Numbered from the stretch's first letter, positions 5,976-54,312 are shown. The stretch is DNA of 64,000 nt from an uncultured Candidatus Sumerlaeota bacterium (GCA_942493245.1 OW818685.1:3452389-3516388); one strand, 5' to 3'. Notes: generated from the letters alone by a model not told the origin. Numbers and translations: made by a program.

Positions 5976-6243
5976 CGTGCCGCCCTCCTTCTATTGCCTG
6001 GACTTGCAGCCCTTCCAATTGCTTTCGGACCCGAATTGTACCGGTCCCGGAGGGTTTCAGACAAGTCAATAATCCGATATTGTGCGCCGGTATCCCCTCG
6101 CCACCCAATGGTTCTTAATCCTGTTGTTTCTTTGCTTGACATATCGAGTCCCCTATCTCAATATACCAGAATAGTATAGGTCGTTCCTATTGCCTCCGAA
6201 ATTTTTTCCAACCATCCGAAACAACGAGAAACGAATCATAACA

Positions 6244-9200
6244 ATGGACTCCCAACAAGACGGCATGGCGATAGCGCACGAACTGATCCGCGAAGCGAAA
6301 AAAACCCACGCCCTCTTTCTGGACCTGGGAAACCTCGGATTGACAGAACTCCCCCGTGAACTGGAAGAACTCGTCTGGCTGGAAGGGCTGAATCTGTCTG
6401 TGCTCTTTCGTGACATCGTTCATATGAAATTGGTGGTATCCATAAACGAGTATAGTCCAAATCGGATCAAGTGTCTACCATCATGGATCAGAAAACTCCA
6501 ATGCCTGCGTCACCTATTCCTAACAGATTTAGAGAAACTCAATAATATGGAGGAACTTCAAAGTCTTGAGGTGCTCAGTTTAACTGATTGCAATGATTTG
6601 ACCAATGTTGACAATCTGCAAGATCTAATCCGCCTTCAAGCACTGGACTTAAGCCGCTGTTCGTGTCTAACTAATGTAGACGGACTACAAAAACTAAATG
6701 GACTCAAAGTATTGGACCTATCTGTTTGTTCAAAATTAAAAAGTATCAATTGCTTGCAAAAAATGAACAAACTTCAAGTCCTAAACTTGGATGGTTGTTG
6801 GAGTTTGGAAAATATCTCTTGTCAGCCACAACCATCCCAACTTCGGTTACTAAATGCAAGAGGATGCTGCAACCTGCCCCATATTAACATTCTGCAGGGA
6901 TTGAACCACCTTCAGACGCTGGACTTAAGTGGGTGCGGGAACCTAGCCCAAGTCAATGTGCAGGGGCTGAGGGAACTTCAGTCACTATATTTAAGCGGGT
7001 GTGAGAATCTGACACAGATCAGAGGCCTGCAGGGGTTGAACCACCTTCAGACGCTGGACTTAGGTGGGTGCGAAAACATAGCCCGAGTCAACGTGCAAGG
7101 GCTTAGACAACTTCAGTCGCTGAGATTAAGAAGGTGTCTAAGCCTGAGCCTGGTCAATATACAAGGACTGAACAAACTCCGATCACTGGACCTATGTGCC
7201 TGTACTAGTTTGACCTCTCTCCCAGATTCTGTACTATATATGCCCCAATTAGAGGAACTTTTTCTTTGTGAAAGTAGTATCTATGACATTCCCCGCCCCT
7301 TGCTTGGTCGCGATTACTATGAAAATTGTCTACCGGGTATTCGGGCGCATTTCCACGATCTGGAACAGGGGGAAGAGCTGGACCGGGAGGTCAAACTGAT
7401 CCTGCTGGGGAATGGGTGGGTGGGGAAGACGTCGGTGTGCCGCCGGTTGATCGAGAACCGGTTTGACAAACATGAAAAATCCACCCACGGCGTGCGGTTC
7501 TGGCCGTGGCGTCTGAAGGAAAAGGAGGGCGAGGAACGCGCCATCACGGTCAATGTGTGGGATTTCGGCGGGCAGGACATTTATTACGGGACGCACGCGT
7601 TGTTTCACCAGGGCCGCGCCGTCTTTGTGATTGTGTGGGACGCGGAAACGGAAGGAACCGACTTCACACAAGATGAAGAGACCCAACTGACCCACCGGAA
7701 CTACCCGGTCCAGTACTGGCTCGACTACGTCCAGTCGGTCTCTCCCGGCAGCCCGGTCGTGATCGTTCAGAACAAATGCGCCTCGGATTTCGACTACCGC
7801 GCCGTCTCACTCACGATCAAAAATTCGAGTCAACACCCTCTGCAATGCCGGTTTTGCGCTGAGGAAGCGGACGATGCCCGAAACAACCGCCAACTCCTCG
7901 TGCATTACCTGGAAGAGGCGGTCGAGAAAGTCCTGGGGCACAAAGGCACCCAACGGATTGGTGTGGGTCGCTGGGGGGTGAAACAGGAACTGCGCCGGTT
8001 GTTGAACGAGGAAAAGACGCAAACCCTTTCGATCGAACGGTATCGTAAAATCTGCAGGGACCACCACCTCGACAAGGCGGGCGCCGACGCGCTGCTCGAG
8101 TTTCTGCACCACAGCGGAACCGTTTATCACCAGGCAAACCTGTTTGACAACGCGATCATCCTCGACCTGCGCTGGGTGTGCGACGCCATTTACACCCTGC
8201 TGGACCGGCACAAAGGGTGTTATCACGATATTCGGGAAAGAAACGGTCAATTCACCGGAAACCTCCTGAACCGGCTGGTCTGGCGCGAGGCGGGTTACCA
8301 ACTGTCCGAACAGGATCTGTTTATCGAAATGATGCAGTCGTGTAAAATCTGTTTCAAGTTAGGTGAAAATGATCGCAAGGAAGCCGTCTATCTGGCGCCG
8401 GATCTGACGCCCAACTACACAGACGTCGCGGGGGGATGTTATTGGGAGGAAAAAGGCGAAACATTCTACTGGCGCTATGATCACGGCTTTCTGGGTCCGA
8501 ACGTCCTCCGGCAGGCAATGATCGAAATCGGCAAAACGTATCGGCAATCGGCCTGTTACTGGCAGAACGGCTTTTACCTGCCGCTCAATGCCCTCCAGAG
8601 CCGCGCCCGCGTCACTGCGGAATACGGCCAGAACGGCAACCCGTCCCCCGGGCACATCACCCTGGCCATTCAGGGCGCAGGCAATCCCCAGAACAAGATG
8701 GAAATGCTGGGCATCCTGCGGAACGCCTTTGAAGAAGACCGTCGGTATCGGTGGCGCGAAAGTAATCGCAAAGATTGGGGGTTGGAACAAAAAAAGACCG
8801 GCATCCGGTATCAGGTTTCCCTGGATGGGGAGCACTGGGTGGATCTGGAAGCGTTGAAAACCATGCGCGACCTCGGGAACCCCCATGTGGCCTCTTTCGG
8901 GGACAACGACGCCCCACCCGTTCAACAGGAAGTCGCCGATTACCTCCATTACCTCGACCATCTGGACACCCCGTCCCGGTTCGACGGGGAGACACCCCGT
9001 CCACTCCCCCTCGCAAAAAACCAAGACACCTTGACTCCCATTACAGACGAAAAGGAAACGAAACCCATGAGCCCAGCCAATCCCCCGAAGGTTTTTATCA
9101 GTTACAGTCATGAAACCGCAGAACACGATGAACGTATCCGCAAATTGGCGGATCAGTTGTGTGAAAAGGATGGGATTGAGGTAGAACTCGACCAGTACCA

Positions 9201-9594
9201 TCAACGACCGTCCCAGGGATGGCCACGCTGGTGTGAGGAACAACTGGAACCGGAGAATTCAGACTTTGTCCTGGTCATCTGTACGCAAACCTACCTCGAT
9301 CGAATAAAAGGTAAAGTTCGAGCCGACGAAGGACACGGGGTCTATTGGGAAGGGTCTCTTCTCTACGATTACATCTATGATTCGAAAAGCAATACTCGTT
9401 TCATTCCGGTTCTGTTGAAAGGGGGAAAAGAAGACCATATTCCGCGCCCGATAAAAAGTTCCGGATGGTACAAGATTGAAAAGTTCGATCTTTCGGATCC
9501 GGGTTATAACGCGCTTTATGGGGTCCTGACCAATCAACCGGAGGTCAAAAAACCTCCCAGAGGCACGATTAAACGTCTTCCCGCGAAACCATGA
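6244..9594 (+). CDS. ROCO-family multidomain protein: cysteine-containing LRR - Roc GTPase - COR - C-terminal SEFIR/TIR-like domain
   Basis: ATG at 6244 (the ORF track opens at a TTG at 6190, in frame). About 14 LRRs of the LxxLxLSGCxNL type (nt about 6300-7250). Roc GTPase with G1 GNGWVGKTS (nt 7390 onward), G3 DFGGQ and G4 NKCASD. A COR-like region of about 350 aa follows. The C-terminal domain (nt 9085-9510) begins PKVFISYSHETAEHDERIRKLADQL and contains NTRFIPVLLKGGKEDHIP, which closely resembles SEFIR domains (compare Act1 RKVFITYSMD ... FRFIPVLFPNAKKEHVP). Confidence 0.85.
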   Translation: MDSQQDGMAIAHELIREAKKTHALFLDLGNLGLTELPRELEELVWLEGLNLSVLFRDIVHMKLVVSINEYSPNRIKCLPSWIRKLQCLRHLFLTDLEKLNNMEELQSLEVLSLTDCNDLTNVDNLQDLIRLQALDLSRCSCLTNVDGLQKLNGLKVLDLSVCSKLKSINCLQKMNKLQVLNLDGCWSLENISCQPQPSQLRLLNARGCCNLPHINILQGLNHLQTLDLSGCGNLAQVNVQGLRELQSLYLSGCENLTQIRGLQGLNHLQTLDLGGCENIARVNVQGLRQLQSLRLRRCLSLSLVNIQGLNKLRSLDLCACTSLTSLPDSVLYMPQLEELFLCESSIYDIPRPLLGRDYYENCLPGIRAHFHDLEQGEELDREVKLILLGNGWVGKTSVCRRLIENRFDKHEKSTHGVRFWPWRLKEKEGEERAITVNVWDFGGQDIYYGTHALFHQGRAVFVIVWDAETEGTDFTQDEETQLTHRNYPVQYWLDYVQSVSPGSPVVIVQNKCASDFDYRAVSLTIKNSSQHPLQCRFCAEEADDARNNRQLLVHYLEEAVEKVLGHKGTQRIGVGRWGVKQELRRLLNEEKTQTLSIERYRKICRDHHLDKAGADALLEFLHHSGTVYHQANLFDNAIILDLRWVCDAIYTLLDRHKGCYHDIRERNGQFTGNLLNRLVWREAGYQLSEQDLFIEMMQSCKICFKLGENDRKEAVYLAPDLTPNYTDVAGGCYWEEKGETFYWRYDHGFLGPNVLRQAMIEIGKTYRQSACYWQNGFYLPLNALQSRARVTAEYGQNGNPSPGHITLAIQGAGNPQNKMEMLGILRNAFEEDRRYRWRESNRKDWGLEQKKTGIRYQVSLDGEHWVDLEALKTMRDLGNPHVASFGDNDAPPVQQEVADYLHYLDHLDTPSRFDGETPRPLPLAKNQDTLTPITDEKETKPMSPANPPKVFISYSHETAEHDERIRKLADQLCEKDGIEVELDQYHQRPSQGWPRWCEEQLEPENSDFVLVICTQTYLDRIKGKVRADEGHGVYWEGSLLYDYIYDSKSNTRFIPVLLKGGKEDHIPRPIKSSGWYKIEKFDLSDPGYNALYGVLTNQPEVKKPPRGTIKRLPAKP
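6897..7130 (+). repeat. intragenic tandem duplication of a two-LRR unit (about 135 bp, two copies)
   Basis: GGATTGAACCACCTTCAGACGCTGGACTTAAGTGGGTGCGGGAACCTAGCCCAAGTCAATGTGCAGGGGCTGAGGGAACTTCAG... from about 6899 recurs at about 7034 with roughly 85% identity by eye. Confidence 0.6.
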
Positions 9595-47061: not shown

Positions 47062-47772
47062 ATGGTAGCAGCCATGCCCGTTTCATACAAAAAGAAAAAA
47101 GACATCGTCTATAATCTGATCCGCAGCGAGATCATGAACGGCCTGCTGGCGATGGGCGAGCATCTCGTGATCAGCAACCTGGCGGCCCGGCTCGAGGTCA
47201 GCACCATTCCGGTGCGCGAAGCCCTGCAGCGGCTGGAAGCGGAAGGTCTGGTGACCATCACCGCACACGTGGGCGCCAAAGTGACCGTGGTGCGTCTGGA
47301 ACAGGTCGCCGAAGTTCTAACGCTTCTCGAATCGCTGCAACTGATCGTGTGGCGTAACGCCTGCGCCCAGGCGACCCCCAAGGACGTGGCGGCGCTCGAA
47401 AAGCGGCTGCGCGAGATGGACGGCCAAACTGCGTCGCCCGCCATCTGGTCTTTCTCCAGCGAACAGTTCCACGAGTTCCTCTGTGAAGCGTGCGGGTTGA
47501 CCGTGACGCTGCACCTGCTGCGCCTGGCCCACGACCAGTGGCGCCGCCTCCACCGTCAATTGCTGGCGGATGTCTTCGCCAAGCGCCTCAACGCTTCCCA
47601 GAAAGACAACTGGAAGTTGTATCATGCGCTGGCCGCCAAGAAACCGGACGATGTGGAAACCATCCTCCGGGCGCATTTCGAAACCTCCCACCAGGTTTAC
47701 CAGAAACACATCGAGGCAATCGAGAAAGCAGCCAAGAAGAAAGCGAAAACCGATCCGGACGAGTGGGACTGA
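47062..47772 (+). CDS. GntR-family transcriptional regulator (FadR/FCD type)
   Basis: N-terminal winged HTH (..LAARLEVSTIPVREALQRLEAEGLV..) and a helical C-terminal effector domain. Confidence 0.75.
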   Translation: MVAAMPVSYKKKKDIVYNLIRSEIMNGLLAMGEHLVISNLAARLEVSTIPVREALQRLEAEGLVTITAHVGAKVTVVRLEQVAEVLTLLESLQLIVWRNACAQATPKDVAALEKRLREMDGQTASPAIWSFSSEQFHEFLCEACGLTVTLHLLRLAHDQWRRLHRQLLADVFAKRLNASQKDNWKLYHALAAKKPDDVETILRAHFETSHQVYQKHIEAIEKAAKKKAKTDPDEWD

Positions 47773-47953
47773 AAGCCGCGATTGAGGTCCCTTCACCTTA
47801 AACATCGTAATGCCTATTTTTTCAACCCTGAGCCACACGAAAAAGCGATTTCGTGTGGCTCTTTTTCAAAAGTATGGAATAAACGGCGACAAAGTCGGGT
47901 TGATCGTTTTGAATGTTTTCTTACATTCGGGTCTAAACGCAATTCCACTTTTC

Positions 47954-48073
47954 GTCATTCCCGCGAAAGCGGGAACCCAGATCCGGAACGTTCTGGTTGA
48001 TTGCGTTTCTCCTGAGTTTCCCCCCTGTTTTCCCGTTCGCGCCCCTCTGGGTCCCCGCGTTCGCGGGGATGAC
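47954..48073. repeat. REP-like palindromic repeat pair in inverted orientation
   Basis: GTCATTCCCGCGAAAGCGGGAACCCAG (47954-47980) and CTGGGTCCCCGCGTTCGCGGGGATGAC (48047-48073); each is itself a hairpin and the two are near reverse complements of one another, about 65 bp apart. Confidence 0.5.
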
Positions 48074-48203
48074 AAAAGGGAGACGAATGCCGGGAGGTTT
48101 GAGTCGCAAAATCGGAGAAAGATACACCATCAATGCTCACCAGAAAAAGAGCCATTCAACGACTTTTGCAAAAGGCTCGTGTGGCTCTTTTTTTGGAGGC
48201 CTT

Positions 48204-49259
48204 TCAAGGCGTCTTCTTCAGAAATTCCTCGAACTCGGGAGTAGTTTTCTCCAGGAAATTTCCGTTCCCTTCTCGAACCAGAAAAAGGGCGGCGAGGTTG
48301 TGGGTGGCCGCAAAGGTGAATCCCTCTTCCGGCCCCAGAACCATGAGAGCGGTGGCCCAGGCGTCCGCTTCGGCACAGGTGGACGCGATCACGCTGACCG
48401 AAGCCAGCGCATGTTCGATGGTACGACCCGTGCGCGGATCAATGGTGTGGGAAATACGTTTGCCATCCTCGATATAGAAAATTCGATAATCGCCCGAGGT
48501 GGCCATGGATCTGTCCGACAGGCTGACCGAGTCGGACAGATCGCGAGTGGCATTGTCGAGCGGTTTCAAAATCCCGACACGCCAGGGCCGCTCCGCATCG
48601 TTCCGTCCGCGCGCACGAATTTCTCCACCGATCTCGATCACATAATGCTCGATATCGAGTCCATCGAGCACTTTGGCCACCTGATCCACCCCATACCCCT
48701 TGGCAATCGCCGCCAGATCGCAATAGACTCGCGGGTCTTTCTTGTACAATGTCGAGGCCCCGGAATCGAGTTCCAGAAGTTGGTACCCCACATACTCGCG
48801 CAACGGAACAAGCGACTCGGCGGTCAACGGCTCGGCACTGCGTTTCTGCGGGCCGAATCCATAGGCGTTGACAATCGGCCCGACGGTGATATCGAACGCA
48901 CCGCCAGACAATTCACTCACCTTGAGCGACAGCGCAATCACCTCGATAGTCTCGGGAGAGAGGGACAGGGACGATTGCGCTGCGTTAAACCTGGAAATCT
49001 CGGAATCCGGGCGGTAGTTGGACATGAGGCCGTTGACCTCGTCGAGCCGTTTTTCGATTTTGGAGGCGATGTTTTGGTTTTCCTGGTCGGCCAGCGCGGC
49101 CGTCCGGGACGTCCGGTATTGCACCGTGTAGGTCGTGCCCATCGTCCCCCCCTGAATTTCCTGCAGGAGCAGCGAAGGCCGACCCAATTCGCGCAACAGA
49201 AACACCGCCACAACCAGCAGCAACACCGCAATGACGTGGAGCGAATACTGCGCCCACAT
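48204..49259 (-). CDS. apbE: FAD:protein FMN transferase (ApbE family)
   Basis: N-terminal membrane anchor/signal (MWAQYSLHVIAVLLLVVAVFLL) then an ApbE-like domain (..RISHTIDPRTG..). Start set at ATG 49259; the ORF is open to 49550 and 49436 is an alternative start. Confidence 0.75.
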   Translation of the reverse strand: MWAQYSLHVIAVLLLVVAVFLLRELGRPSLLLQEIQGGTMGTTYTVQYRTSRTAALADQENQNIASKIEKRLDEVNGLMSNYRPDSEISRFNAAQSSLSLSPETIEVIALSLKVSELSGGAFDITVGPIVNAYGFGPQKRSAEPLTAESLVPLREYVGYQLLELDSGASTLYKKDPRVYCDLAAIAKGYGVDQVAKVLDGLDIEHYVIEIGGEIRARGRNDAERPWRVGILKPLDNATRDLSDSVSLSDRSMATSGDYRIFYIEDGKRISHTIDPRTGRTIEHALASVSVIASTCAEADAWATALMVLGPEEGFTFAATHNLAALFLVREGNGNFLEKTTPEFEEFLKKTP

Positions 49260-49443
49260 TTCGGCCAGAAAACGCCGGTACCCCGGACTTAACCACAGAC
49301 TTTTGAGAAACGTCAAAAATTGGCGTCCGTAGTCCGGTCCCTTCTCGGACCAGGGCCGACCATCTCGAAAAACCCGACACACAGCCCGCCCCCATACCGT
49401 GGCGCGGCGACAGAGACGGACGGCTTTCACGACCATCGGGCGC

Positions 49444-50508
49444 TTAGGCATGGAGTTCCGGCGCATGTTCGCGCGTCCATTCCTCGATATCGGGCGCGCA
49501 GTACTGAACCCGCACTTTTTTGAACTCGCGCCGGGAGTGCAACAGGGCATAGTCGTCCAGACCGGTCGCGGCCCGAATGGCCTCGACCGCCTGGAGCGTT
49601 TCGCGGTCGTCGCGCCCGTGGATCATGGCATAGTGCGAATAGGGCCAGTCCGGAGGATACGTGGGACGCTGGTAACAGTGGGAAACCTGAGACACGGCGG
49701 CCATGCTCTTGCCAGCCGTTTCCGCTTGCTCGGGCGGCACATTCCACGCGCTCATGATGTTGGCCGTATATCCCGCCTGACGATGGCGCAGAATCGCGGC
49801 GAAGCGGCGCATGGCGCCTCGATCGAGGAACTGCCGCGCGAGGGTCAGCAACTGCTCGCAAGTCAAGCCGTGGGCTTGAGCCAGCACGGAGAACGGCTCG
49901 ATCTCCAGCGGCAGATCGGTCTGAAGCGCGCGAACGGCAGCCTGCTCGATGGCGCTCAGAGGGGGGACCTCCCGGGAAGGCAAATGGGGAAGAGAACCGG
50001 AATCCCCCTCCGATTCCAACCGTCCCGTTTCGAGGGAATCGGCTTCAGGCTCCCCCATCGAGAACCGCACACCGATCTTGAAGAGCCGCACCGCCGGGAG
50101 AAACAGCCAGTTGCGCGCGTCGGCCAGCCGGGCGAGCGCCCGGGCGTGGGAACGCAGGTCGGCCTCAGGCGGAACGGTGAGCGTGCTCCAGAGATTGAAA
50201 CGGTGCTCGCGTTCGTAGTTGTGGCTCACACCGGGATGGCTGTTGATGCGCAGGGCAGCCGACTCCAGCGCCTCGGGCAACAACTCGAACGCCAGAAGGG
50301 TACTTTGATACCCCAAAGCCGCTGAATCGAAAATCGCGCTGAGCTGGCGGATAAGACCCGATTCCTTTAATGCGCGAAGGCGCGTCAGGAGGGTCTCTTC
50401 CGGTAACTGCAACCGCTCTCCCAGAACGCGGAAGGGACGCTCGTTCAACGGGAAGGCCGTTTGAACGGCATCCAGAATGCGGCGGTCGAGATCGTCGAGG
50501 GACAGCAT
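49444..50508 (-). CDS. siroheme decarboxylase-like protein (fused AhbA/AhbB or NirD/NirL type, tandem Lrp/AsnC-like modules)
   Basis: Two tandem AsnC-like winged-helix plus ligand-domain modules (MLSLDDLDRRILDAVQTAF... and ..LSAIEQAAVRALQTDLP..), adjacent to hemL and a heme-type radical SAM gene. Confidence 0.65.
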   Translation of the reverse strand: MLSLDDLDRRILDAVQTAFPLNERPFRVLGERLQLPEETLLTRLRALKESGLIRQLSAIFDSAALGYQSTLLAFELLPEALESAALRINSHPGVSHNYEREHRFNLWSTLTVPPEADLRSHARALARLADARNWLFLPAVRLFKIGVRFSMGEPEADSLETGRLESEGDSGSLPHLPSREVPPLSAIEQAAVRALQTDLPLEIEPFSVLAQAHGLTCEQLLTLARQFLDRGAMRRFAAILRHRQAGYTANIMSAWNVPPEQAETAGKSMAAVSQVSHCYQRPTYPPDWPYSHYAMIHGRDDRETLQAVEAIRAATGLDDYALLHSRREFKKVRVQYCAPDIEEWTREHAPELHA

Positions 50509-50532
50509 GAACAGCCTCTTCCTGATTTCCTC

Positions 50533-51822
50533 TTACAGAACGGCCTTCGCCGCCAGCAAGGCCTCGCGCTGCGCGGCCAGCGTCGCGTCCACATCGGCGT
50601 CCGTGTGAGCCGCCGAAACAAAGGCCGCCTCGAACTGCGCCGGAGCCAGATAGATCCCCCGATCCAGCATCGCGTGGAAGTACGCCGCATAGGCCTTTGT
50701 ATTGCATCCGGCGGCCGTTTTCCACGAGGTGACACGCTCCCGGGTGAAAAAGAGACACGACATGGACCCCACCCGCGTGGTGAAAAGGTCCAGTCCCAGT
50801 TCTTTCAGATTCCGATCCGTCCCGGCGGCCAAGCGCGCCGAACGGACTTCAAGGGCGTCGTAGAACCCCGGCTCGCGCAACAACTCAAGGGTTTCAATCC
50901 CGGCGGTCATGGCCAGCGGGTTGCCCGACAGGGTGCCCGCCTGATAGACCGGTCCCTCGGGCGCCACTTTCGCCATAATGTCCGCCCGCCCGCCATACGC
51001 CCCCACCGGCAAGCCGCCGCCGATGATCTTGCCCAGGGTGGTCAGATCGGGCATGACGCCATAGCGCTCCTGTGCGCCCCCCAGCGCCACCCGGAACCCG
51101 GTCATCACCTCATCGAAAATCACAATAATCCCCTCGCGGGTACAGATTGCGCGCAAACCTTCGAGAAAACCCGGCTCGGGCGGCACCACGCCCATGTTGC
51201 CCGCAACCGGTTCGACAATAACCGCCGCGATCTCACCCGAGTTGGACCGGGTAAGCGCCTCGACCGATTCGAGGTCGTTGTACGACGCCAGGAGCGTGTC
51301 GGCGGCAGCGCCGGGTGTCACGCCGGGACTGTTGGGCACCCCAAGCGTCGCCGCGCCGGAACCGGCGGCGATCAGGAAACTGTCCGAGTGGCCGTGATAA
51401 CACCCCTCGAACTTGACAATCTTGTTGCGTCCCGTAAACCCACGCGCCACGCGCACGGCGCTAAGAGTCGCCTCGGTACCGGAATTGACCATGCGGACTT
51501 TTTCGATGGAAGGCACGATTTCGATAATCAGGCGCGCCAGTTGGTTCTCGAGCACCGTGGGCGCGCCAAAACTGGCGCCACGCGCACACGCCTTCTGAAG
51601 CGCTTCGACCACGCGCGGATGGGTATGACCGACGATCATGGGACCCCACGACCCGACGTAGTCAATGTATTCCCGCCCTTCGACATCGCGGATGCGGGCG
51701 CCCGACGCGCTTTCCATGACTACGGGCGTCCCGCCCACCGCGGCAAACGCGCGCACAGGCGAATTGACCCCACCGGGGATCAGCGTGCGGGCTTCTTCCA
51801 TGATTTGTTGACTGGTTGGCAT
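50533..51822 (-). CDS. hemL: glutamate-1-semialdehyde 2,1-aminomutase
   Basis: [10 protein letters not shown], a PLP-dependent class III aminotransferase pattern, full length (429 aa). Confidence 0.9.
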
Positions 51823-51828
51823 ATCGAA

Positions 51829-52977
51829 TCACAACTCCTTTGAATGGCCCGATTGGGCCTTCGGTTCATAGACACAGAAGGGTTCTTCGGCCAGATAATC
51901 TCCCGTGGCCGCATACGCGCGGGCGCGGCATCCTCCGCACACGCGCCGGTATTCGCAGTACCCGCAACGACCGTGGTAGCCGTCGAGGTTGCGCATGGCC
52001 AGAAAAACGTCGGACGTCTCCCAGATCCGCTTGAAATCGTAGTTCGCCACCCGCAGATCCCCGCATTCCTCCTCCAGAAAACCGCAAATCTGAAGTTTCC
52101 CGACGTGCGAAATGAACGCAAAGGACTGCCCCCCCATGCACCCCTTCGACATCGCGTCGAGGCCATGCGTCTGCGGCGTGACTGAACGCCCCTTCTCGCG
52201 CTCGCGCTGACGCAGAATGCGGTAGTAGTGCGGGGCACAGGTGGGTTTGAAGAGAATCGACAGCGACTCGCGTTTCTCGTAGATCCAGTTGAGCGTCCGC
52301 TCGTACTCTTCGGGCGTCAGGCTCTGTTCAGCCATCTCCCGTCCCCGGCCCGTGGGCACCAGCAGGAACGGGTGGTAGGCCACCGCGCCGATCTCGATGG
52401 CCAGATCCAGAATCTTTTCGAGTTCGTGGAGGTTGTGCTTCGTGACGGTCGTATTGATCTGAAATTCGAGACCCGCCTCGCGGGCATTGCGGGCCGCGAG
52501 CATCACACTGTCGAACGCCCCCTCGACACGTCGGAACTGATCGTGGCTCTCAGCCGTGGCTCCGTCGAGACTCAGGCTGATACGCTGAATACCGCAGGCC
52601 TTCATCCGCTCGGCGGCCTCGACCGTCACCAACTGTCCGCACGGCGCCATCACCATGCGAAGCCCGAGGTCCGAACCGTGGCGCGCGATGTTCCAGATGT
52701 CCGCGCGCAACATCGGCTCCCCACCGGTGAGGATGATAATCGGTTTGCAGAACGACGCGATGTTGTCGAGCGTCGCGCAGATTTCTTCTTCGTTCAACTC
52801 ATTGCAGTAAGGCCCAAACTGCGCCGCCGCCCGGCAATGCACGCAGTTCAGGTTGCACGAGCGCGTCACCTCCCACGCGATGAGACGCGGCAGATACACG
52901 GGAGAACCGGGAGAGTGCGGAGACGGCATGGGAGAAGGTTCGGATGGATGTGGCATGGAAAGGTGACTGTACTCCAT
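51829..52977 (-). CDS. radical SAM/SPASM protein of the heme biosynthesis type (AhbC/AhbD/NirJ-like)
   Basis: CNLNCVHC radical SAM cluster motif and a Cys-rich C-terminal SPASM-like region (..CGYCEYRRVCGGCRARA..). Confidence 0.7.
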   Translation of the reverse strand: MEYSHLSMPHPSEPSPMPSPHSPGSPVYLPRLIAWEVTRSCNLNCVHCRAAAQFGPYCNELNEEEICATLDNIASFCKPIIILTGGEPMLRADIWNIARHGSDLGLRMVMAPCGQLVTVEAAERMKACGIQRISLSLDGATAESHDQFRRVEGAFDSVMLAARNAREAGLEFQINTTVTKHNLHELEKILDLAIEIGAVAYHPFLLVPTGRGREMAEQSLTPEEYERTLNWIYEKRESLSILFKPTCAPHYYRILRQREREKGRSVTPQTHGLDAMSKGCMGGQSFAFISHVGKLQICGFLEEECGDLRVANYDFKRIWETSDVFLAMRNLDGYHGRCGYCEYRRVCGGCRARAYAATGDYLAEEPFCVYEPKAQSGHSKEL

Positions 52978-53068
52978 TCAGGCTTCAAAATCGGTCTCGT
53001 AAAATATGGCGATTCCCCGCTTATCCGAACGAGAGAATACCTCCAACCGGATCAGAATTTCCAAGTCC

Positions 53069-54061
53069 TCACGCCAACCACCGCGCCACATCCTTGGCCG
53101 AGTAGGTCAGGATGATATCCGCGCCCGCGCGCCGGAAACCGGTCAGCGTTTCGAGCACGATGCGCTTTTCGTCAATCCATCCCCGAGCGGCCGCCGCCTT
53201 CACCATCGCATATTCACCGCTGACGTTGTAGGCCGCCACGGGCCGTCCGAACCGCTCGCGCACGCGCCAGATAATGTCCATGTAGGCCAAGGCGGGCTTC
53301 ACCATCACAATGTCGGCGCCCTCCTCGACATCGAGCCGCACTTCCTCGAGCGCCTCGAGCGCGTTGGCCGGGTCCATCTGATACGACCGGCGGTCGCCAA
53401 ACTGTGGCGCGGATCCCGCCGCCTCGCGGAAGGGGCCATAATACCCCGACGCGTACTTGGCCGCATACGCCATGATCGGCACGTTTTCGAAACCAGCCTC
53501 GTCCAGCCCTTCCCGAATGGCCGCCACGCGCCCGTCCATCATGTCGCTCGGCGCGACCATTGTGGCGCCCGACCGCGCGTGGCTCACCGCCGCCTGGGTC
53601 AACAATTCGAGCGCCTCGTCGTTCTGCACCACCCCCTGGCAGATCGGACCGCAATGGCCGTGGTCGGTGTACTCGCACAGGCACACATCGGTGATGATCT
53701 CGAGGCGGCTGTCCACCGCGCCCGTATTGACCTGGCTCGCCAGCGCCGCACAGGCCCGCTGCACAATCCCGTTTTCGGCATAGGCGCCCGAACCCACAGC
53801 GTCCTTGCTTTCCGGAATACCGAAAAGCAACACGCCCGGAATCCCCAGATCGCGCACCTCTTTACATTCCTCGACCAGCTGATCCACCGACAAATGGTAA
53901 CACCCCGGCAGCGAGGAGATTTCCTGACGGACATTCGTCCCCGGCACCACAAAGAGCGGATAGATCAAGTCATCCACGGAAAGCCGGGTCTCACGCACCA
54001 TGCGGCGCAGACTCTCGGTAGCGCGCAAGCGCCGCATACGCAGTTTCGGGAAAATGGACAT
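53069..54061 (-). CDS. hemB: porphobilinogen synthase (delta-aminolevulinic acid dehydratase)
   Basis: [13 protein letters not shown]..., active-site region ..[14 protein letters not shown].. and ..[14 protein letters not shown]... Confidence 0.9.
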
Positions 54062-54312
54062 CGAGTTTTCGCCTCTCTTTCTCTCTGAACCCAGACTTTT
54101 CTCTGGAACATTTTCTTCAGCAGTCCCACCGGCGTCCAGAGAATTCTCGCTTCTCGTGCCGCCCGCAGTCTCATCCCCCCGGCGTCCCCACCGGCTTTCG
54201 CGGTTCTGTACCGCCGGCGTCCCCGCCGGCGAAGGAGCTCCAGAACGAACCGGCTCGAACCCGGGTGGACAAAATAATCGGGACATTCCCCCCGAGGTTC
54301 AGAAAATTCCCC

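Follow-up and report, generated by a model that had tools for sequence, protein, structure and literature searches.

A tag-outward pair of Ssn-related hairpin motifs in a MITE-like insertion between gntR and apbE of an uncultured Candidatus Sumerlaeota bacterium

Between the convergent gntR and apbE genes of an uncultured Candidatus Sumerlaeota bacterium (GCA_942493245.1), we found two short hairpin units in opposite orientation that, judged by their sequence, belong to the CGTC-1 REP/dRS3/NTS family of repeats, now known as Ssn-related motifs (SRM). Our preferred reading, which we hold with moderate confidence, is that this heterodimer, with its tags facing outward on either side of a 66-nt spacer, forms the core of a MITE-like insertion of about 326 nt, that its units are putative single-stranded DNA targets of Ssn nucleases, and that the whole is a selfish or neutral passenger. 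The window is the complete stretch of 64,000 nt that we analyzed (OW818685.1:3452389-3516388). Positions are counted from its first letter, and the features are listed in Table 1 together with copies of the element at other loci, which are designated by L numbers.

Table 1. Features of the gntR-apbE region of the window, and copies of the element at other loci
Feature	Position	Strand	Details
GntR/FCD-family regulator gene, left neighbor	47062..47772	+	Pfam PF00392 and PF07729
Terminator-like hairpin and T-run downstream of gntR, upstream of the block	47830..47866	+	13-bp stem, 7 G-C pairs, TTTTT tail
Left 16-nt direct repeat	47851..47866	+	TCGTGTGGCTCTTTTT; coincides with the gntR terminator's T-run and 3' arm
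Left 13-nt inverted repeat at block edge	47861..47873		CTTTTTCAAAAGT; partner 48162-48174; 92% complementary
Inserted non-coding block, about 326 nt	47867..48192		Arms, composite and second direct-repeat copy; absent from the orthologous spacer of four relatives
Composite core, about 132 nt	47945..48076		Unit-spacer-unit heterodimer; lineage-specific repeated element
Left SRM/NTS-type unit	47953..47980	+	CGTC/ATTCCCGC/GAAA/GCGGGAAC/CCAG (tag/stem/4-nt loop/stem/tail); SRM and NTS match
Spacer between units, 66 nt	47981..48046		Conserved among composite copies of the lineage (alignments)
Right SRM-type unit	48047..48074	-	TGTC/ATCCCCGC/GAAC/GCGGGGAC/CCAG (read on the - strand); SRM match
Right 13-nt inverted repeat at block edge	48162..48174		ACTTTTGCAAAAG; partner 47861-47873
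Right 16-nt direct repeat	48177..48192	+	TCGTGTGGCTCTTTTT; duplication-like signature of insertion
ApbE-family gene, right neighbor, convergent with gntR	48204..49550	-	Pfam PF02424, E = 2.9e-86
Composite copies	L122 (2 copies), L124, L126-L128, L130-L132, L136-L138, L140, L142, L146		
Long-form element copies	L122 1312-1527 and 11737-11953; L124 11594-11728; L126-L146		Terminal inverted repeats TATAG(A)GCGTTTGCC.AAAGGAATC

A repeat search of the window picked out two inverted arms of 32 nt (47950-47981 and 48046-48077) that are 88% complementary and have 64 nt between them. Each arm holds a palindrome of its own, CCCGCG-AA-AGCGGG on the left (within ATTCCCGC/GAAA/GCGGGAAC) and CCCCGCG-TT-CGCGGGG on the right, and the CGTC and TGTC tags of the two units face outward. 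Compared with the left unit, the right one carries a compensated stem change from T-A to C-G (ATTCCC...GGGAA versus ATCCCC...GGGGA). When we searched the 64 kb for the 25-mer of the unit, allowing up to 3 mismatches, these two units were the sole matches, and none was expected from 100 shuffles. Predicted folding of the 138-nt region that spans the pair was far more stable than that of its shuffles, at -33.7 kcal/mol for DNA (z = -4.97) and at -63.1 (z = -4.9) and -65.0 kcal/mol (z about -5) for RNA. An earlier note, made from the sequence of the window alone, had described two opposed hairpin units in this intergenic region and had suggested folding it as a check; the repeat search, the palindromes and the folding all agree with that description. 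The 27-bp units about 65 bp apart that it gave are better described as functional units of 28 to 31 nt, with 66 nt between the 28-nt units.

Three ORFs overlap the element (47810-48244 on the + strand, and 47866-48075 and 47955-48155 on the - strand), and none of them had a Pfam match. For annotation, the element should be treated as non-coding repeat DNA and these ORFs as spurious.

Tagged REPs have been divided into a GTAG and a CGTC superfamily (Di Nocera et al. 2013, PMC3733652). Within the latter, CGTC-1, which corresponds to the dRS3 of Neisseria, is defined by a CGTC tag (with TGTC or CCTC allowed), an 8-bp stem that begins with AT and has complementary A/T at its first and second positions, a 4-nt loop, and a CCA tail; its units are found mostly as HH dimers, that is, with the tags outside, separated by spacers of 20 to 100 nt and lying between convergent or unidirectional ORFs (PMC3733652). 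The window pair resembles this family in its tags (CGTC on the left and TGTC on the right), its AT stem start, its 4-nt loops (GAAA and GAAC) and CCA tail, and in forming an HH heterodimer of two stem variants, tags outside, with a 66-nt spacer and between convergent ORFs. The first stem position is an unpaired A.C, leaving a stem of 7 bp (ATTCCCGC/GCGGGAAC). This A.C was also the commonest first pair among distinct units (38 of 50), in a sample selected with a ...GGGAAC query. The pair differs from CGTC-1 in lying 180 and 130 nt from the neighboring ORFs, as against under 20 nt, because it sits within a larger insertion. Measured against the strict dRS3 definition (ATTCCC-N8-GGGAAT, a 20-bp palindrome), the left and right units depart at 1 and 3 positions, respectively, a tolerance at which this short pattern is unspecific (38 matches versus 34 expected). 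Neither GTAG, the tag of REPIN/RAYT systems, nor CTAC was present at either end of either unit.

Dimers of this kind can be found in Neisseria itself. A gonococcal example quoted in PMC7593972, TTCGTCATTCCCGCGAAAGCGGGAATCTAG...(~58 nt)...CTGGATTCCCACTTTCGTGGGAATGACG, has the same unit and the same pair architecture. The window pair can also be compared with larger neisserial repeats built from such units. Neisserial intergenic mosaic elements (NIMEs) consist of repeat units of 50 to 150 nt bounded by inverted dRS3-type palindromes, and the window element shares this architecture of a repeated segment between inverted palindromes. It differs from NIMEs in that its spacer is unrelated in sequence and that it is a single pair, not an array.

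The same motif has been characterized as a nuclease target. The 28-nt NTS, CGTCATTCCCGCGMAVGCGGGAATCYRG, contains dRS3 and is bound and cut by SsnA, a GIY-YIG nuclease with a single domain and a length of 94 aa; the repeats often flank the gene for this enzyme (Chenal et al. 2025, Nat Commun, PMC11893778). SsnA acts on the NTS only as single-stranded DNA and only in a single orientation; in mutagenesis, cleavage depended critically on the GTC 5' of the palindrome and binding on the C immediately 3' of it, and sequence matters besides structure (PMC11893778). In that study, relatives of the NTS are captured by a degenerate pattern, the SRM, and the NTS itself is limited to sequences with at most 1 mismatch (PMC11893778).

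We searched the window with the SRM pattern, HGTCWYN(0-2)YYVSBRHN(0-5)WNVSBRGN(0-2)RNCYNB, and found that both units matched it and that they were the only two matches in 64 kb (shuffle mean, 0.59). The left unit differs from the NTS consensus by a single mismatch (T to C at position 24, 27 of 28 identical; 0 matches expected by chance), and the right unit was not found at up to 3 mismatches and differs by 4 on a hand count, so that one of the two units falls within the one-mismatch limit of the NTS. In both units, the palindrome is preceded by this GTC and followed by this C (GTC-A(T/C)... and ...GGGA/GAC-C). The pair thus shares with the NTS/SRM-Ssn system a directional hairpin with a 5' GTC and a 3' C, and its left unit is a near-copy of the NTS. 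It differs from that system in its host, which belongs to the Sumerlaeota and not to the proteobacteria, in its A.C first stem pair, in the four mismatches of its right unit, and in being embedded in a conserved composite and in a larger MITE-like block. These comparisons re-file the REP-like pair under NTS/SRM-Ssn, away from REP/RAYT, and they extend a motif that is nearly base-for-base identical to a Neisseria sequence into a candidate phylum from anaerobic digesters.

We looked across public genomes to determine how widely the unit is distributed. The exact 27-mer GTCATTCCCGCGAAAGCGGGAACCCAG was present in at least 120 loci of a species-representative genome collection. Among the matches listed, the hosts included Sphingopyxis, Sphingomonas, Luteimonas, Rhodanobacter, Betaproteobacteria, Binatia, Dehalococcoidia and Phycisphaerae, so named, and their classes span Alpha-, Beta- and Gammaproteobacteria, Binatia, Dehalococcoidia and Phycisphaerae. 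These listed loci contain 235 units at up to 5 mismatches. Neighboring units in them were tag-outward, with a + unit followed by a - unit as in the window, in 81 cases and tag-inward in 1, and the modal gaps between neighbors were 16 and 23 nt. The conserved part of the same listed loci spans no more than about 31 nt (tTCGTCATTCCCGCGAAAGCGGGAACCCAGt), outside which their sequences are unrelated. The variant represented by the right unit was the second commonest among the sampled loci. A 23-mer, CGTCATTCCCGCGAAAGCGGGAA, was found in 94 viral or prophage contigs of IMG/VR (loci L152-L245), which may be true phage DNA or host flanks of predicted prophages. The earlier note had likened the pair to a REP doublet and had stated that a unit unique to this locus would speak against that likeness. 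The unit is not unique, although the window has a single pair, because the family is huge and widespread; it is an extragenic palindrome family found mostly as inverted pairs, and the comparison with REP doublets stands.

Among 50 distinct 28-nt variants, pair 7-22 was C-G in 26, U-A in 20 and G-C in 2, and pair 6-23 was U-A in 42 and C-G in 6. The covariation score of the unit hairpin was 0.22, compared with 0.10 in shuffles (0 of 500), and slid registers scored far worse; the variants had been gathered with the SRM pattern, which limits positions to purine or pyrimidine and does not itself force pairing. The predicted unit hairpin is backed by these compensatory stem changes.

Units were also seen in other arrangements. 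Some IMG/VR loci, such as L173, L196 and L203, carried tandem arrays of the unit. In L052, L021 and L109 (Halieaceae and Betaproteobacteria MAGs), arrays of units in the same orientation, with periods of 48 to 77 nt, lay beside one unit on the opposite strand and resembled the clustered arrangement reported for Neisseria and Wolbachia.

We then searched the unit-containing loci for a partner enzyme. A GIY-YIG ORF near a unit in L016 (Pfam PF01541) served as the query, followed by an HMM built from 120 of at least 7,999 homologues. Ssn-type sequences, here meaning single-domain GIY-YIG proteins of about 100 aa assigned by Pfam (PF01541) and putative members of cd10448, were present in 7 of 214 loci. 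Four of these were among the 120 genome loci (intact genes in L016 and L120, and genes fragmented at units in L107 and L061), and three were among the 94 viral or prophage loci (L156, L172 and L215). The Ssn-type gene of L156 has the identical 28-mer CGTCATTCCCGCGAAAGCGGGAACCCAG at either side with the tags outward, and the gene in L172 is bracketed in the same layout, tag outward, by window-type units. Small single-domain GIY-YIG genes are bracketed by the same unit in L156, L172, L215 and L107. A screen of the first 120 loci for ORFs closely enclosed by units gave nothing of note beyond the Ssn fragments of L107. The exact unit is associated with Ssn-type GIY-YIG genes in other genomes. Searches by tblastn and HMM (--max) also covered the window, some 48 kb of orthologous DNA from relatives and 108 kb of composite-bearing metagenome loci, and none of these yielded an Ssn homologue.

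Two of the Ssn-type loci merit description. In L120 (6455-6971, a Sphingopyxis MAG), the intact gene is bracketed by another SRM variant, CGTCACCCCGGACTTGATCCGGGGTCCAT, of a 5-nt-loop type, and window-type units are found at a distance of 2.3 kb, which shows that several SRM families share this genome. In L107 (1207-1720, an Oceanicaulis MAG), the gene is split, its C-terminal part (1326-1430, - strand) being inverted relative to its N-terminal part (1504-1695, + strand), and the breakpoints coincide with SRM units, which suggests an inversion between inverted units.

Comparison with relatives allowed us to examine the history of the gntR-apbE site. The HemL encoded in the window is 93, 74 and 68% identical to proteins named Candidatus Sumerlaeota bacterium, and close relatives come from anaerobic-digester and other metagenomes. 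Four independent ones (L121, L122/L123, L124/L125 and L149) keep the gntR-apbE pair, with flanking genes at 82 to 89% nucleotide identity, and have spacers of 127, 83, 34 and 103 nt, respectively, versus 431 nt in the window; none of these four spacers contains an SRM unit. Excising the block and one repeat copy in silico from the window restores the layout of the relatives, a spacer (here of 105 nt) that has just one terminator hairpin and T-run. In 1000 shuffles of the spacer, no direct repeat exceeded 11 nt, compared with the 16 nt bracketing the block; the boundaries of the block are ambiguous by about 6 nt. These comparisons mark the block, by sequence, as a recent insertion of about 326 nt at this site.

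The block (47868-48184) recurs at 77 to 93% identity, in a different context, in L127, an unrelated, repeat-rich metagenome contig, and L127 alone holds further copies of the whole block. There, two inverted copies lie at 623-805 and 828-1051 (contig of ERZ1645192). The whole center of the second copy (window 47964-48053) is replaced by one tag-to-tag palindrome, CGTCATTCCCGTTTTCGCGAGGATGACA, which reflects either a deletion between the internal CCCGCG repeats of the units or an excision-like footprint. The same non-coding contig has a second, unrelated palindromic repeat family, CCGTCCCTCCGGGACGG, clustered at about 309-326, 349-367 and 414-434.

The core of the element is more widespread than the block. 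Relatives and metagenomes contained 15 further copies of the segment 47945-48076, at 76 to 92% identity, giving 16 in all. The spacer measures 66 to 70 nt in every copy, nearly all have the same stem-variant heterodimer, and a query with the spacer pattern recovered 21 metagenome loci. We counted 4 pairs in about 112 kb (111.9 kb) of DNA of this lineage. L122 and L124 carry the element at the radical-SAM/ALAD junction, a site that is empty in the window and in L121. Such filled and empty sites among close relatives show that gain or loss of SRM-containing composites takes place within short evolutionary times, and this turnover bears on the question, raised by the authors of the Ssn study, of whether the NTS-ssn-NTS unit acts as a mobile element.

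The relatives carry the core inside a shell of about 232 nt that has terminal inverted repeats (TIRs) of about 25 nt and a TA on both sides, and the empty orthologous site of this long form has a single TA. The long form of the relatives is a TA-duplicating MITE with the SRM pair as its core. TA-duplicating TIR MITEs include the neisserial Correia/NEMIS elements and MITEs derived from IS630/Tc1, and we take the TIR ends of the relatives to resemble those of Correia/NEMIS. Like such MITEs, the element is non-coding, intergenic and 230 to 330 nt long, and the long form has TIRs starting with TATAG. The window copy differs in that it is without those TIRs and instead has inverted ends of 13 nt and a direct repeat of 10 to 16 nt. 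The outer arms of the L122 type were not detectable in the window copy (p = 0.1-0.99).

The consensus of the 16 composite copies folds into one long arm-to-arm hairpin whose covariation term is -0.99; in 15 of the 16, T.G and A/C mismatches persist at the heterodimer positions. Because covariation is near-absent and the mismatches are retained, the individual unit hairpins are supported and a perfect long palindrome is not. The long arm-to-arm hairpin as a selected structure was dropped on the strength of the covariation term.

We propose the following explanation for the gntR-apbE element. The insertion would have landed in the terminator region between the two convergent genes, and its units probably act at the level of DNA. 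Whenever the region became single-stranded, as in replication, in repair or in incoming DNA, each unit would fold into its own hairpin of 7 to 8 bp, whose conserved 5' GTC and 3' C would allow an Ssn-type GIY-YIG single-strand nuclease, if one is encoded in the genome, to bind and cut there. The opposed orientation would place one unit per strand in the cleavable orientation, and the gene-less pair may be a miniature counterpart of the unit-ssn-unit arrangement. Cleavage of the window units by an enzyme of the Neisseria type is not assured because of the A.C first pair and the 4 NTS mismatches of the right unit. At this locus, the pair most likely plays no part in the expression of gntR or apbE and is a passenger, whether selfish or neutral.

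The features of the element point to its mover in two directions. The TIRs and TA of the relatives and the inverted ends and direct repeat of the window block point to a conventional transposase, so that mobility may stem from a DDE-type enzyme and not from Ssn. The core shared by two unrelated shells and the bare pairs seen elsewhere point to the SRM core itself. Pressed further, the former observations yield an ordinary TIR-type MITE mobilized by a DDE transposase, in which the SRM pair is a core or cargo relic with no living Ssn partner in the genome. This alternative is possible, if somewhat unlikely: the TIRs TATAG(A)GCGTTTGCC.AAAGGAATC are sharp and bordered by TA, the window block has its own end repeats, and no Ssn was found in the searched DNA of the lineage, although that sampling covers about 2 to 4% of a 6-Mb genome and no matching transposase was found either. 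The two shells (window/L127 arms and L122-type arms) share the core of about 132 nt, which suggests that the core is persistent and not cargo, and units elsewhere are bare pairs without conserved flanks. At the other extreme, tag-outward SRM pairs might be non-autonomous miniatures of unit-ssn-unit elements that are still transposing in Sumerlaeota, with Ssn as the transposase. We regard this bolder idea as doubtful. If it were true, Ssn would act as a transposase guided by ssDNA hairpins and so represent a kind of bacterial transposition enzyme that is not known to have been demonstrated, and the core in two shells, the site polymorphism and the collapsed palindrome of L127 would be footprints of insertion and excision. 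Use of the units as recombination or integration targets, as attachment sites for IS110-family or phage recombinases in the way that dRS3 serves neisserial filamentous prophages, seems very improbable. It would fit the reports that a specific phage recombinase targets dRS3 (PMC11893778) and that REPs are IS targets (PMC3733652), the occurrence of the unit in the 94 IMG/VR contigs, and the Ssn gene of L107 that was seemingly inverted between units; nothing is integrated at the window site, however, no recombinase gene adjoins it, and such opportunistic use explains neither the origin of the repeat nor its pair structure. Least probable of all, in our estimate, is a REPIN or BIME mobilized by a REP-associated tyrosine transposase, which the earlier note had raised in saying that such elements can be targets of REP-associated transposases. 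An inverted REP pair that can form a long hairpin is indeed the REPIN layout, the family is high-copy in many genomes, and the gene-less pair recalls the miniature of a "repeat-gene-repeat" idea of REPIN-RAYT systems (Bertels & Rainey 2011, PMC3116915). The tags are nonetheless CGTC and TGTC, not GTAG, and the associated gene elsewhere encodes a GIY-YIG nuclease and not a Y1/HUH transposase. CGTC-1 is said to lack "a dedicated transposase" because no RAYT gene flanked by CGTC units was found (PMC3733652). A tblastn search with E. coli RayT (b0228), a single query of limited sensitivity, gave a best E value of 1.4 in 1.11 Mb (window and loci) and nothing at E <= 0.01 in a further 835 kb, or about 1.9 Mb around units altogether, compared with seven finds of Ssn-type genes. 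On the tag and these counts, we dropped the link to RAYT; the documented partner of the motif is the Ssn GIY-YIG ssDNA nuclease (PMC11893778), in keeping with the unit-bracketed genes described above.

Roles in RNA have been proposed for many REPs and BIMEs, and the earlier note named transcript stabilizers and terminators among the possible functions of such elements. We consider a function as a terminator, a 3' stabilizer or a processing site for gntR and/or apbE improbable here. The position between convergent genes is the usual one for REPs (PMC3733652), the RNA hairpin is very stable, and its arm-to-arm stem includes G-U pairs. A strong terminator-like hairpin and T-run, however, precede the block on the gntR side, and on the opposite strand a terminator-like stem and T-run separate apbE from the element; little read-through into the element is therefore expected. 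The four relatives keep the gene pair without the element, the long hairpin is followed by no T-run, and there is no promoter-like site. Rfam gave no match at gathering thresholds over the whole window and none at E <= 1 over 47700-48300. Recognition of the SsnA type is, moreover, specific to ssDNA and not RNA (PMC11893778).

Two other regions of the window were examined. The gene at 6190-9594 (+ strand) encodes a protein of 1,134 aa with LRR, Roc, COR-A and COR-B regions and a C-terminal SEFIR/TIR domain, in a low-GC stretch (0.50-0.54 versus about 0.60); this bacterial ROCO/TIR protein is possibly the product of a defense or NLR-like gene on an acquired island. Beside apbE, at 49444-54286, lies a heme-synthesis cluster that is syntenic in all relatives and comprises a siroheme decarboxylase resembling NirD/L (AhbA/B type), glutamate-1-semialdehyde aminomutase, a radical-SAM enzyme and ALAD.
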